Source: Methylocystis sp.
GTDB lineage: Bacteria > Pseudomonadota > Alphaproteobacteria > Rhizobiales > Beijerinckiaceae
Direction of reading: 5' to 3'
DNA: 24,283 nucleotides
NCBI GenBank assembly: GCA_022843525.1
Contig: JALHNR010000015.1
Coordinates: forward strand, 1 to 24,283
Every line of letters starts with the position of its first letter. Position 1 is the stretch's first letter. Shown one piece after another: positions 11,190 to 15,981 of the stretch. A program made the translations under genes and the position numbers. The notes below the pieces were generated by a model that was not told the DNA's origin, did not search any database, and saw only the letters and a list, made by a program, of their open reading frames with translations.

Positions 11190-11490
11190 AGATCAATAGG
11201 CCTTCTCTTGCGACACCATTCCTTCTTCTACGCGGATTCCCCGCAGATTGCGAAGGCGTTGCGAGGAAAGCGTCGCGCGCCACCGGCGTGGGTTGCGCTC
11301 GGGGCGTTCCTCGCCCTTGTGACCGCGACGACATGGATATCGACGAGCTCTTCCGCGAACCGCCGCGGGCGGCTGAGCGATAGTGGCCGAATTCGGTAAC
11401 GCGATGGCCAAGCCGAACGCGCGTCACTGCCACTCGTGGTCAAATCGCGGCGCTCCCTGATCAGTGGTGCAGGATCCGTGCAACCTCATG
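11190..11490 (-). pseudogene. Nitrile hydratase accessory/activator-like gene, decayed
   Basis: The ATG (complement of 11488-11490) overlaps the alpha-subunit 3' end. It reads MRLHGSCTTDQGAPRFDHEWQ-TGA-RAFGLAIAL. This resembles the accessory-protein motif (P-x-F-D-E-P-W-Q-x-R-A-F-A-L) but carries an in-frame stop. Downstream similarity is scattered over three frames. Confidence 0.45.
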
Positions 11491-11976
11491 ATGGCGCTCC
11501 GGCCAGCGCGACAAGCATATCGACTCGGTCGTCACGAGCTCCATCAGCTGCGCCTCGGTAAAATCCTCTGTCGCTGCTGGCCTTTCAGGAATTACGAAAC
11601 ACCGCGCCGTCCCGCTGCTGTCCCACACCCTGATCTCCGTTTCCTCGGGCAGTGGACGCCAACCTCGGCGAGCACTTTCCGCGGCTCGCGGGCCGCGCGG
11701 GCGCGAAATACCGGATCGGCAATCCCAGCACCGGCCATGGGAAGCACGAGCAAAGCGAGCAGATGATCAGGTTGTGCACCTCGGGCGCGTTAGCGACGGC
11801 CCGCAGGTGCTCGCCCTCGGCGCCGGCCATTCCCTCGGGCAGGTCGAGTTTGGCAATTGCGGCCGGGGTGTCGGCCAGGAGCCGGGCCAAGAAGCCCGCG
11901 TCGGTCCACGCTCGCACGACGATCTTTCTTGCCGTTGAGCGGACGCGGTCCTGCGGATACTTGAATGGCCGCTCAT
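11461..11976 (-). pseudogene. Nitrile hydratase alpha-subunit-like gene with multiple frameshifts
   Basis: The metal-binding claw motif is IICSLCSCFPWPVLGLP (codons at 11744-11761), preceded by RKIVVRAWTDAGFLARLLADTPAAIAKL. The C-terminal sequence continues in two other frames (DPVFRARAAREPRKVLAEVGVH, then LPEETEIRVWDSSGTARCFVIPERPAATEDFTEAQLMELVTTES). The ATG overlaps the beta stop (ATGA) but is out of frame with the conserved part. Confidence 0.8.
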
Positions 11977-12673
11977 GCAGGTTCCTCCAAGTATATCTCG
12001 AACAGTTCGGCGTAAAGCGTCTGCGCGCCGGGTTCCGCGCGCGGACCCCACAATTCGGTCGGCGTGAACTCGACGATGTAGACGGGCATTGGATCGCCGA
12101 TGCCATCGCCAGTGTGCCAGAAGTAGACACAGTCGCCTTCGAGCACCTGCGCCACCGTGCCGCTCCGCCCCCGCAGATAGCCGGGCAGGCGAGTGTGCGC
12201 GCCAACTGGGACATTTGCGATCCGGACCCGCTGCCCGACGGCGAACTTCGAATGCGCGACGTCGCGCCGCGGGCTGTCGCCGTTACGTAGATATGCGATG
12301 ATCTGCTCGTCGATGGCTTCAGCCCGATCGGATCCCCTGGCCGAGCGCCGTCCGGCCTGGCCGCTTCGCCACGCAGTTAGCTTGTCCGCGAGGCTAATTC
12401 GTCCTCGCGCAGGTATCCTTGTCGACGAGGAATGGGGATGCCGCTGAGCCACTTCTCGTAGTAACGGAATTTGAAGTAGTCGAATGGATCCATCGCCTCG
12501 GCGCCAGCGCGCAGATCCGCCCATGTCCACATGTCGCGGAAGGCGGTCGGCACGTAGGCGATCGCGCAGGCCGGCACGGACGAGTCGAGATGGCCCGAGA
12601 GAGCCATCATCGCCACATAGATGCCGAATATCCGATTTCCCACTGCCTCGGCAGGCTGGTTCAGAAAAAAGGG
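11973..12673 (-). pseudogene. Nitrile hydratase beta-subunit-like gene, 5'-truncated and frameshifted
   Basis: The N-half lies in one frame (12377-12643: DPFDYFKFRYYEKWLSGI). The C-half lies in another (FAVGQRVRIANVPVGAHTRLPGYLRGRSGTVAQV...VYIVEFTPTELWGP...LYAELFEIYLEEPA). An in-frame stop at 12674-12676 removes the usual first roughly 25 residues. No start codon is available for an independent C-half. Confidence 0.75.
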
Positions 12674-12817
12674 TCAATTCGGATCTGGAGCGCTTTTCCG
12701 ACGTTGTCCAAAATAGGCTCAGAGTTGTGGAAGGCAAAGGCCGCAACACGCCGACGGTGGAATCGGAGGATCAGGGACGACGCGCGCGGAAGATGCGGAG
12801 CGGCGGCGAATGAGCGC

Positions 12818-13261: not shown

Positions 13262-13987
13262 CTACTCTTCGCTGGCCAGCCCTTCCGCTTTACAGCGTTC
13301 GAGGACACCGGTCACGATGCGGTCGCACCGCGCGCCGGCGAAGGCGAAAACGTCGCTTAAGCCCGCGTCCATCTCCTGGGCAAGGCTTTCGCGCAACAGG
13401 CTGCTAGCTCGGAAGAAGCGCGTACGCACCGTCGCCTCGGGGATCTCCAGCGCCTCGGCGGTTTCTTCGACGCTCATCTCCTCGATCGCGCGCAGCATGA
13501 ACACCGTCCGGAAGGCCTCCGGCAGAAGGTCGATGCGCGCCTCCAAGAGCTTGCGCATCTGAACCCGCATCATCGATTGTTCTGGGCTACGCTCAGGCTC
13601 ATCGTTCAGCGCTGTCTGGGCTTCAGATTCATGGGGCGTCATGGCAGCTTCCAAAGGAATGATCTGGGCACTCTTTCGCCACAAGCGGCCGAGCGCTTCA
13701 TGGGTCGTGATCCGCACAAGCCAGGTATAGAGCTTGCTCTCGGCGCGATAGTTTCCAAGCGCGCGCCACGCCCGCAGATAGGTGTCCTGGACGACATCCT
13801 CCGCCTCCGCATCATTGTGCACGATGCTACGCGCCGTACGGAACAGAAGCTGGTTGTGCCGTCGCATGATGGCTTCGAACGCCACTCCGTCACCGTCAGC
13901 GGCGCGCGAGATCAGCTCTGCCTCCGGCGTGGTTTTCGATAAGCTATTTGCCGCCTGACGCTGAAGTGATTGCATTTGCGCCTCCAT
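13262..13987 (-). CDS. ECF-type sigma-70 family sigma factor with a short Cys-containing C-terminal extension
   Basis: Region 2 is AEDVVQDTYLRAWRALGNYRAESKLYTWLVRITTHEAL. Region 4 is LPEAFRTVFMLRAIEEMSVEETAEALEIPEATVRTRFFRA. A roughly 35-aa tail follows (DVFAFAGARCDRIVTGVLERCKAEG). ATG 13975, behind GGAGG, is an alternative start. Confidence 0.85.
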   Translation of the reverse strand: MEAQMQSLQRQAANSLSKTTPEAELISRAADGDGVAFEAIMRRHNQLLFRTARSIVHNDAEAEDVVQDTYLRAWRALGNYRAESKLYTWLVRITTHEALGRLWRKSAQIIPLEAAMTPHESEAQTALNDEPERSPEQSMMRVQMRKLLEARIDLLPEAFRTVFMLRAIEEMSVEETAEALEIPEATVRTRFFRASSLLRESLAQEMDAGLSDVFAFAGARCDRIVTGVLERCKAEGLASEE

Positions 13988-14195
13988 TCATTGAACAGGT
14001 AGGCTACCGGCGTGCCTTTGCCGGCGCTGCCGCTATAGGGATCGCGCGCGCCGCGTCTTCCGGATCGCGCAGCAATTCCATCATGCCCGCGACCATCGCG
14101 AAAGCGATCAACGCGTCGATGAGTATCACGGCTCCTTTCCGGGCGTACGGGCGATGGCGGGGCGCCGTTCCGTCGTCGCCCTTGGCGTTGTCCGA

Positions 14196-14609
14196 CTAAT
14201 GTTCGAACTTCGTTGGGAAGGCGGCGATCAAACCGTTGGTCAGGGCATCGGCCAGCATCATCATATGAGCCTCCGCCTTTCCATATTCGGCGATGCCGTT
14301 GGCATATTTGCCCTGCAAAAGCCCCGTGGCGTAGACCACAGTTGTGTCGATATGCCCCTTGAGCCTGTCGCGTACCTTGGTTTGCGGCCAGTTCTCGTTC
14401 GCCTTGGCGAGAAAATCGGCAATTTCCTGCGCGTTTGCGTAGGCGGCTGCGACGGACTTGTCGGTGGCCGGCTTGTCGCCGGCCTTGGCGGCTTTCACGA
14501 CCTCGACGGCTGCGCCGATATGCTCCTGAAGCAGCTTGGTGAGCGCGTTACCAGCTGCATCGCCATAGAAGGGCTTGATAGCGTCGCCGATATCGGGCTG
14601 GTTCTGCAT
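14196..14609 (-). CDS. Hypothetical all-alpha protein (conserved-looking, function unknown)
   Basis: 137-aa ORF ([43 protein letters not shown]...) with helical-repeat character. Its ATG shares one base with the stop of the upstream signal-peptide ORF. Confidence 0.6.
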
Positions 14610-14740
14610 CAGTCGCGCTGCATGTTAACGGAATAGGCGGCGGTCGGGCGGAAAACGGGAGTAGCCATAAGTGCGGCGGCGAAGCCCGCAAGGGCGAGGC
14701 GGCGATTAACGGCCGGGTGGAACATCTGCACGCGTGTCAT
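14609..14740 (-). CDS. 43-codon ORF encoding only a signal-peptide-like sequence (probably the detached 5' end of the 14196-14609 gene)
   Basis: The ATG (complement of 14738-14740) lies 6 nt after AAGGAGA. The peptide is [43 protein letters not shown]. Its stop overlaps the next ATG (TGATG). Confidence 0.35.
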
Positions 14741-14803
14741 GACGGTTCTCCTTGGTCGATCAGTTTGCGTAGCGGCCGGTGTGATCGACTCGATGCGGCC
14801 CCG

Positions 14804-14856
14804 TACATTCGATGCGACCCTTTCGCGCTGCGTTCCCGTTGCACGAGATTTTTTTG
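14804..14856 (-). promoter_or_regulatory. ECF (RpoE/AlgU-type) promoter-like element, copy A
   Basis: The minus strand reads TGCAACGGGAACGC-N17-TCGAATGTA. GGAAC is the complement of 14832-14836 and TCGAA the complement of 14808-14812. This puts the -10 about 65 nt upstream of ATG 14740. A second copy lies 277 bp away. Confidence 0.5.
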
Positions 14857-14952
14857 GGGGAAAAGAGAAAGCTTCCGAGCAGGTCGAGCGGCAGAGTACG
14901 GTCAACTCTAAAACATCCTGCGACAACACAAGCGCTGGATCGTAAACGGGCT

Positions 14953-14983
14953 GCGGAGGCGCTAAAACTCATAGCGCCTCCGC
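14953..14983 (-). terminator. Perfect 11-bp-stem hairpin between the two promoter-like copies
   Basis: GCGGAGGCGCT [9-nt loop] AGCGCCTCCGC, read directly. On the minus strand it is followed by AGCCCGTTTACG, which is only a weak U-run. Confidence 0.35.
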
Positions 14984-15080
14984 TATCGCACCAGCGTGAA
15001 TTTACGGGGGTTCCCGACGGTACGATATTTCTGTACAGAGCGGTAGCTGCCGCTCAGTTTTTCTCCGCACTCGCGCCCTG

Positions 15081-15131
15081 TATATTAGATGCGACCATTC
15101 CGCGCTGCGTTCCCGATGCAGGAATATTTTT
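15081..15131 (-). promoter_or_regulatory. ECF (RpoE/AlgU-type) promoter-like element, copy B
   Basis: The minus strand reads TGCATCGGGAACGC-N17-TCTAATATA. GGAAC is the complement of 15109-15113 and TCTAA the complement of 15085-15089. It matches copy A at roughly four of five positions over about 52 nt. Confidence 0.45.
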
Positions 15132-15231: not shown

Positions 15232-15759
15232 CTACGGATAGATAACGGCGCCGTCAGGTTGAATGACCGCGCCTGGAGTGAGATGGGCCGGCTCCAGACG
15301 ACCTTCCCCCAAAATGTGGAAAACGGTCTCCCCGCTGGCGATAAGATAATCGGCGACGATGCGGCGGTGGCATCGCCACCATACGGCTTCCGAACACATG
15401 ATGGTACAGCGCCGCTTGCGTCCTCTGTCCAAGAGGTGTTGGAGGCCTGCCTGAAACTGTGTAGTAAGCGCATAATCGGCGTAGTTGTGGAAACTCTCGT
15501 TCGTCCAGAAGGCGTTGACAGTCGGAGATATGCCGCGTGACCTTCCACGAAGGCCACCGAGGGCAGCCATATGTTCATAAGAGATGGCGACGGCCGCCAA
15601 GGCGCCGGGAAGCGTGTTCTTGTCAAACTGTGGATTGGTTCGTGACTTCGGAATCGTTCTGATGTCCGCGACAAGAGCGATATCGGCTTCGCGCAGCAGA
15701 CCGATGAAAGCCTCGAGGGTTCGGTTGGAATGGCCGATGGTGAAAAACGGAAGCTTCAC
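15232..15759 (-). CDS. DUF488 family protein
   Basis: 175 aa with the DUF488 pattern FTIGHSNRTLEAFIGLL, VADIRTIPKSRTNPQF and IMCSEAVWWRCHRRIVADYL. Confidence 0.8.
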   Translation of the reverse strand: MKLPFFTIGHSNRTLEAFIGLLREADIALVADIRTIPKSRTNPQFDKNTLPGALAAVAISYEHMAALGGLRGRSRGISPTVNAFWTNESFHNYADYALTTQFQAGLQHLLDRGRKRRCTIMCSEAVWWRCHRRIVADYLIASGETVFHILGEGRLEPAHLTPGAVIQPDGAVIYP

Positions 15760-15771
15760 GCGCGGCCTTCG

Positions 15772-15981
15772 TTATGCATAGTCGAGCGCGCCGCCCTTAT
15801 GCGCTGCGATGTGATCTGTCTTGTCGCTTTTGATTTCGTACTGGGGATCGTCTTTCGACGCGTGATGCGTGTGGCCTTTATAATCGAAATCTCTAATGTG
15901 AATGGCGATGATAGTCCCCGACACGCGTCCGGCCTCGGAGTTCCAGCTCACATGATCGCCGATCTTAAACTTCCGTGCCAT
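15772..15981 (-). CDS. DUF2945 (HVA/Tudor-like) small protein
   Basis: 69 aa: KFKIGDHVSWNSEAGRVSGTII ... DDPQYEIKSDKTDHIAAHKGGAL matches the DUF2945 pattern. It lies 12 nt upstream of DUF488 on the same strand. Confidence 0.75.
   Translation of the reverse strand: MARKFKIGDHVSWNSEAGRVSGTIIAIHIRDFDYKGHTHHASKDDPQYEIKSDKTDHIAAHKGGALDYA

Follow-up and report, generated by a model that had tools for sequence, protein, structure and literature searches.

Two features define the ECF29 group of sigma factors: an added C-terminal stretch of about 30 amino acids that contains an RCE/D motif, and the absence of an anti-sigma factor (Casas-Pastor et al. 2021, PMC7826278). The group is widespread and has no studied member, known anti-sigma factor or demonstrated target (PMC6180224, PMC7826278). 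A cross-species promoter consensus has been derived for it, with GGGAAC at -35 and GCATCCAA at -10 (Lang et al. 2018, PMC6180224), and for rpoE8 of S. meliloti a start site was mapped behind an ECF29-type motif upstream of the gene (PMC6180224). When RpoE8 was overexpressed, no activated target could be detected, and the gene preceded by a perfect motif was no exception (PMC6180224); the presence of the motif is thus no guarantee of activity.

The locus compared here with these systems lies in a stretch of Methylocystis sp. DNA of 24,283 nt (the window; contig JALHNR010000015.1). It contains two similar elements, A and B, which are probably both promoters read by an ECF29 sigma factor, copy A driving the operon of that sigma and copy B being a duplicate of the whole module that would drive a transcript predicted to be structured and non-coding. 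All relevant genes are on the minus strand, in the order Hva1_TUDOR/DUF2945 gene (15772-15981), DUF488 gene (15232-15759), copy B, 222 nt, copy A, a 43-codon, a 137-codon and a 41-codon ORF, and the sigma gene (Table 1).

Table 1. Positions of the promoter elements, intercopy structures and genes in the window
Feature	Position	Strand	Basis or remark
Copy A, complete ECF29-type promoter module (predicted)	14798..14854	-	Direct repeat; motif conserved upstream of orthologues
Copy A, -35 element GGGAAC	14832..14837	-	Pattern match; ECF29 consensus (PMC6180224)
Copy A, -10 element GCATCGAA	14808..14815	-	Predicted start ~14798-14801
Copy B, duplicate of the whole promoter module	15075..15131	-	Methylocystis plasmid lineage only
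Copy B, -35 element GGGAAC	15109..15114	-	Pattern match
Copy B, -10 element GCATCTAA	15085..15092	-	Predicted start ~15075-15078
Predicted intercopy transcript, non-coding, predicted structured	14857..15078	-	Folding, alignment fold
12-bp GC-rich hairpin GCGGAGGCGCUA-UGAGUUU-UAGCGCCUCCGC	14953..14983	-	Fold and alignment fold
Helix with two compensatory base-pair changes	14984..15027	-	Alignment columns 52-95
5' fragment of the 230-aa secreted protein gene, 43 codons, signal peptide, frameshift-ended	14609..14740	-
3' fragment of the 230-aa gene, 137 codons	14196..14609	-
148-nt deletion junction	14609-14623		Cf. L093 (a compared locus) 11218-11366; real deletion or assembly error
41-codon ORF, DUF2231 gene relic, good Shine-Dalgarno sequence	14004..14129	-
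ECF29-group sigma gene, 241 aa, C-terminal extension with RCD	13262..13987	-	Pfam, NCBIfam, RpoE8 alignment

The repeat pair and its conservation

A repeat search of the window gave a direct repeat of two 57-nt copies with 82% identity at a distance of 277 nt, a genuine repeat well outside the expectation from chance. The sequence-only reading had described two elements (14804-14856 and 15081-15131) with identity at about four of five positions; this was borne out, with a slightly wider repeat, and the minus-strand string given for them, TGCAnCGGGAACGC-N17-TC(G/T)AAT, was correct for both copies. Common to both on the minus strand was CGGGAAC-N16-GCATC(G/T)AAT, in fuller form ...AAAAA(A/T)-N-TGCA(A/T)CGGGAACGCAGCGCG(A/G)AA(G/T)GGTCGCATC(G/T)AAT... 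The pattern GGGAACGC-N17-TCNAAT had two exact minus-strand matches in the 24.3-kb window (14807-14837 and 15084-15114; 0.07 expected from shuffles), and the longer shared core GGAACGCAGCGCGNAANGGTCGCATC occurred at these two sites of the window only (0.00 expected). In other Methylocystis versions the similarity between the copies reached about 8 nt further upstream (AAAGC(C/T)AAAAA) and ended a few bases past the -10 element. No residual similarity was found when the sequences downstream of copies A and B were compared. Tandem duplication of the promoter together with its downstream sequence was rejected, the downstream sequences being unrelated.

Copy A consists of an A-tract, a -35 element, a 16-nt spacer, a -10 element and a start region. 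Both copies have CGGGAACGC at the -35 element GGGAAC, and in both the extended -10 element, which in ECF29 promoters (GCATCCAA) lies 15-16 nt from -35, follows a 16-nt spacer; the spacer of the S. meliloti motif sites is 15 nt. The ECF-type promoter anatomy first read from the letters was thereby supported for both copies. About 10 nt ahead of the -35 element, 230-aa gene promoters of several Alphaproteobacteria (L009, L012, L024, L045, L067 and L079) and both window copies share an A-tract, GAAAAAATC, which belongs to the duplicated module and brings an UP element to mind.

Relatives of the 230-aa protein, whose gene follows copy A, were compared in 80 genomic loci, plus further contigs. The loci came from Alpha-, Beta- and Gammaproteobacteria, Deinococcota, Gemmatimonadota, Acidobacteriota and others. 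Some 60 of these loci, spanning several phyla, had G(G/A)AAC-N17-CATCNAA, typically 65-85 nt before the start codon of the orthologue of the 230-aa gene, with spacers unrelated in sequence. In 648 kb of loci the motif was on the gene strand 87 times and on the opposite strand once. The consensus of 70 unique instances outside Methylocystis was CGGGAACGC-N14-tGCATCcAATG, in which C-1, G0, G6, G22, T30 and G31 were conserved although not imposed by the search pattern. The sixth position of the -10 element was variable (C/T/G/A = 50/13/5/2; 70 independent instances), and T, which copy B has there, ranks second among the bases of other taxa.

An orthologous sigma gene (product 55-77% identical) was present in most of these loci, usually downstream, and in nine loci the motif was 15-19 nt before the start codon of that sigma gene itself. 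As in other ECF29 promoters, the motif thus stood, in many species, upstream of an ECF29 sigma gene or of genes that accompany it, and this arrangement is, at the level of sequence, the classical signature of an ECF sigma factor with a target promoter under autoregulation. In other taxa, a locus commonly had several ECF29 promoters. Further copies of the motif preceded genes for GTP cyclohydrolase I, DUF2231 and Tat-exported ferritin-like proteins in some taxa, and also those for fatty-acid-hydroxylase-type and globin-like proteins. The claim that duplication of the promoter module is unusual therefore stood in part only: multiple ECF29 promoters in a locus are common, and what is particular here is a duplicate that shares its spacer by descent and has no gene behind it.

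Copy B and the intercopy sequence

A stretch of Methylocystis rosea BRCS1 plasmid unnamed2 (213.6 kb, mobilizable, rich in metal-efflux genes) matched the window at 96-98% identity. Copy B and the 220-240 nt following it were confined to a narrow Methylocystis plasmid lineage, represented by the window, two Logan contigs, five genome or MAG loci, two JGI contigs and the M. rosea plasmid, with five distinct sequence versions of the copy B region. The nearest relatives outside this lineage (protein 88-90% identical) had a single motif. Judged from these sequences, the duplication is recent and lineage-specific, and copy B would have arisen within the lineage by duplication of the whole module of about 60 nt. 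Every core base was kept in copy B, so the same sigma factor should fire it, and copy B is probably active.

Copy B may instead be an inert by-product of local duplication or rearrangement, promoter-like only through its youth, with a functionless sequence between the copies. This is considered unlikely, if not by a wide measure, and its restriction to one narrow lineage agrees with it. So does the state of the locus, which is decaying on the plasmid, with genes lost and deletions present; 15 nt of the intercopy region are absent from the window. In L003, another locus of the lineage, a deletion between two TCGGGAAC octamers (the one in the copy B -35 element and an internal one, window 15010-15020) removed the copy B -10 element and about 90 nt (L003 3935-3960). 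The operon of L003 is intact, with no visible consequence of the deletion, and copy B is thus dispensable. Against an inert copy B, 11 of its 57 columns varied among the four versions retaining it and none of these was among the 17 core positions (P = 0.0125), which argues that the promoter elements are maintained.

Intercopy divergence was about equal to that at third codon positions of the sigma gene, as an inert copy B would have it, and the intercopy sequence is thus under no clear purifying selection. Its predicted structure bears the other way. The minus-strand RNA had a minimum free energy of -90.9 kcal/mol and was more stable than shuffled sequence (z = -4.26, vs. -2.54 for the plus strand), and the alignment fold of four versions was -82.2 kcal/mol for the minus strand vs. 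-72.6 kcal/mol for the plus strand. Substitutions in the stems mostly preserved pairing, changes being tolerated through compensatory or wobble substitutions, and paired single-base deletions between versions left the first intercopy hairpin intact. Covariation was weak (compensatory changes in three pairs among four sequences; 12 of 500 shuffles reached the observed score). The 12-bp hairpin was invariant in the four lineages retaining copy B and had three disruptive substitutions only in L003, which has lost that promoter. The helix with the two compensatory changes encloses a third TCGGGAAC.

No reading frame in the intercopy region was conserved across lineages, tblastx against all other loci gave no protein similarity, and Rfam gave no match at gathering thresholds or at E <= 1. 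A 70-codon ORF (14760-14972) was rejected: it starts in a hairpin loop, shifts frame between lineages and crosses copy A. The RGI track of PLSDB names the intercopy stretch (L093 10853-11080 = NZ_CP044330.1 51680-51907) Streptomyces rimosus otr(A), tetracycline-resistant ribosomal protection protein, with 100% identity; the stretch is 228 nt long and non-coding, so that the label looks like an annotation artefact.

Terminator-like sites on the minus strand between the copies were weak (14917-14932, and a CU-rich tail near 14865), and no convincing intrinsic terminator was found there in the window. The fold of a long leader from copy B had no obvious effect on the ribosome-binding site, and anti-SD sequestration by the CU-rich tract in such a leader was unsupported by folding. 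With copy B taken as an active promoter, it would yield a structured, non-coding RNA of about 165-230 nt, which would either stop before copy A as a sigma-dependent small RNA or continue into the operon as a long leader; it may also serve no purpose at all. That duplication of the module created a new gene for a sigma-dependent, structured non-coding RNA just upstream of the sigma's own operon is proposed tentatively and is rather unlikely. If true, the gene would encode a very young regulatory RNA, a few per cent of divergence old, which would feed back on the ECF29 circuit or extend its regulon and would be the first handle on a sigma group without a demonstrated signal, regulator or target.

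Promoter class, sigma factor and operon

The sigma protein contained sigma-70 regions 2 and 4 only (Pfam), followed by a C-terminal extension with RCD, in keeping with the extension of about 30 aa with RCE/D in ECF29 sigma factors. Its assignment to the group rests on surrogates, namely 292 bits against the NF008888 equivalog (NCBIfam; cut-off 204) and 40% identity to S. meliloti RpoE8 over 199 residues, including the C-terminal FxFAGxRC(D/E)R. The aligned extensions were FAFAGARCDRIV in the window sigma and FPFAGKRCERLT in RpoE8. In a plasmid search, the pSymB match of the window sigma was a gene flanked by both published RpoE8 motif sequences. Against the RpoE model TIGR02939 the sigma scored 113 bits (cut-off 236). 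No anti-sigma family match was found with Pfam and NCBIfam among the neighbouring ORFs, anti-sigma factors being often unrecognisable by sequence, and no exact copy of the window's sigma protein was found in the contig index. PMC13492112 was discarded as ECF29 literature because it concerns ECF291. The plasmid carries at least two more sigma-70-family/ECF genes (L093 23533-24234 and NZ_CP044330.1 98555-99241), which adjoin multicopper oxidase and SmbP metal-binding protein genes.

From the motif match, together with the likeness of the sigma to RpoE8, its RCD extension, its pass of NF008888 and its failure of the RpoE model, both elements are classed as ECF29-type promoters and not as RpoE/AlgU promoters. 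The sequence-only reading had assigned them to the RpoE/AlgU class; it was right in kind and wrong in class, the promoter type being one already predicted for the little-studied ECF29 family. That they are RpoE/AlgU-class (ECF02) envelope-stress promoters after all is very improbable. The two classes have GGAAC at -35, TCnAA at -10 and a similar spacing in common, but an ECF02 promoter is of the form GGAACTT-N16-TCTGA and goes with an RpoE orthologue and an RseA-type anti-sigma factor. Here GGAAC was followed by GC and not TT, the extended -10 GCATCNAAT was an exact ECF29 match, the adjacent sigma was of the other group by both models and by its extension, and the locus was without an RseA-like anti-sigma gene. 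The adjacent sigma likely reads copies A and B, as proposed from the letters; the motif immediately upstream of the orthologous sigma gene in nine other loci supports this.

Little credence is likewise given to the repeats being plus-strand intrinsic terminators, or 3' ends of plus-strand small RNAs, with a short stem and a T-run. The scan listed 15105-15121 with its T-run, and at 15038-15055 a better hairpin with AGTTTTTCTC behind it, but the stems in the repeats are just 4-5 pairs, no plus-strand gene or promoter-like site is upstream, the plus strand folds worse than the minus strand, and at about 60 other loci the spacers are unrelated and stemless with the motif facing the downstream gene (87 vs. 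1). The hairpin at 15038-15055 (7 bp, GAGCGGTAGCTGCCGCTC) is terminator-like on the plus strand, without a plus-strand gene or promoter upstream, and on the minus strand is the first hairpin of the intercopy RNA. A sigma-70 promoter reading of the repeats was unsupported by a consensus scan. Least credible is a dispersed (REP/MITE-like) repeat unrelated to transcription, an outcome named beforehand as refuting the promoter reading, for which the presence of two copies is the sole argument: an exact-pattern scan of 241 million metagenome records matched two contigs, each with the same pair 292 nt apart, the strict motif was found at these two sites only on the whole 213.6-kb M. rosea plasmid, and there are no terminal inverted repeats.

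As ECF29-type elements, the copies differ in what follows them. The position, orientation and leader length of copy A agree with the conserved promoter of the orthologous genes. The start proposed about 60 nt before the ATG fits a leader of about 58 nt and the 65-85 nt between motif and start codon elsewhere. With the motif upstream of about 60 orthologues and of nine sigma genes, copy A is read as the conserved operon promoter, and its proposed role as promoter of the gene string ending in the sigma gene was supported. No motif was found directly before the sigma gene in Methylocystis, so that autoregulation would run through copy A, and no terminator-like site was found on the minus strand between the 230-aa gene and the sigma gene. 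Copy A would be the ancestral promoter of an operon whose first gene encodes a secreted 230-aa helical-bundle protein and whose last gene encodes the ECF29 sigma. With its gene in last place, active sigma would raise its own synthesis, and the operon is presumably positively autoregulated.

The genes behind copy A are not those first described. The 43-codon and 137-codon ORFs overlap by TGATG, and nearly all homologues of the 137-aa product have a length of about 230 aa and begin with the signal peptide of the 43-codon ORF. A frame-breaking internal deletion of 148 nt sets this gene in the window apart from its counterpart on the M. rosea BRCS1 plasmid and from every other homologue, so that the two ORFs are one broken gene. 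Of the claim that copy A reads through a small ORF, a 137-aa gene and possibly the sigma gene, the promoter of the string thus stood, and the two separate ORFs gave way to one deleted 230-aa gene. The 41-codon ORF is similar to an interior segment of DUF2231 membrane proteins, and a DUF2231 gene lies between the 230-aa and sigma genes elsewhere, which makes it a relic; as a fragment of that gene it was ruled out as a mini anti-sigma factor. The Methylocystis plasmid operon is without the 112-aa, DUF2231 and FolE genes that separate the 230-aa and sigma genes elsewhere. By comparison of the loci the ancestral operon appears to have been 230-aa protein - (112-aa protein) - DUF2231 - GTP cyclohydrolase I - ECF29 sigma.

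A six-helix bundle was predicted with high confidence for the 230-aa protein; its structural relatives were not informative, and no Pfam family matched it. The family was 60-80% identical across Proteobacteria, Deinococcota, Gemmatimonadota, Acidobacteriota, Bacteroidota and Actinomycetota (loci L004-L083), an unusually high conservation that suggests horizontal spread and a constrained function. Many metagenomic contigs ended 200-900 nt upstream of the gene (L013, L020, L024, L033, L044, L067 and L084-L090), as they might if in many genomes a repeat or the junction of a mobile element lay next to the module. The region 11585-12749 (minus strand), which follows the sigma gene, contains nitrile-hydratase-like genes of the alpha (CSLCSC motif) and beta types, which were split over several frames; near 11943, about 113 nt of the M. 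rosea plasmid sequence were missing from the window. These genes look frameshifted in the M. rosea plasmid too and are therefore probably pseudogenes.

Comparison with known systems

By itself, the finding is an ordinary ECF promoter, presumably autoregulated. The comparison gives ECF29 a concrete candidate regulon, the best-conserved member of which is the gene of an unannotated secreted six-helix protein, with GTP cyclohydrolase I, DUF2231, ferritin-like and globin-like genes behind the motif elsewhere. The promoter is conserved across phyla and could therefore serve directly in reporter assays, and the Methylocystis duplicate is a natural experiment in which the same promoter stands with and without a gene behind it.

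Positively autoregulated ECF operons are exemplified by rpoE P2 and sigW. As in these, the sigma's motif was upstream of its own transcription unit; unlike in these, autoregulation in Methylocystis would pass through an upstream gene, and nine other loci have the sigma-proximal motif. Small RNAs that depend on an ECF sigma factor include MicA, RybB and MicL under sigma-E in E. coli. FoxJ of Fusobacterium is described as another such small RNA (PMC11005410). Common to these and the Methylocystis locus is an ECF-type promoter that precedes a short and structured non-coding transcript of the sigma's regulon, the transcript being predicted from the sequence here; the Methylocystis candidate, unlike them, is confined to a few near-identical plasmids and may be a long operon leader.

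The closest match was to the S. meliloti ECF29 sites (rpoE8 and SMb20593; PMC6180224), which have the same -35 element, nearly the same extended -10 element and a 15-16 nt spacer. Sites of the group adjoin a sigma gene with a C-terminal RCE/D extension, as here, and no anti-sigma gene, none having been recognised here with Pfam and NCBIfam; both the S. meliloti and the Methylocystis locus have more than one site. The Methylocystis -10 element has G or T where the ECF29 consensus has C. The sigma gene is last in its operon in Methylocystis and first in S. meliloti; the first gene in Methylocystis is that of the unannotated 230-aa six-helix protein, whereas S. meliloti has SMb20593/amicyanin. 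Unlike the S. meliloti sites, one of the two in Methylocystis is a spacer-preserving duplicate without a gene behind it.
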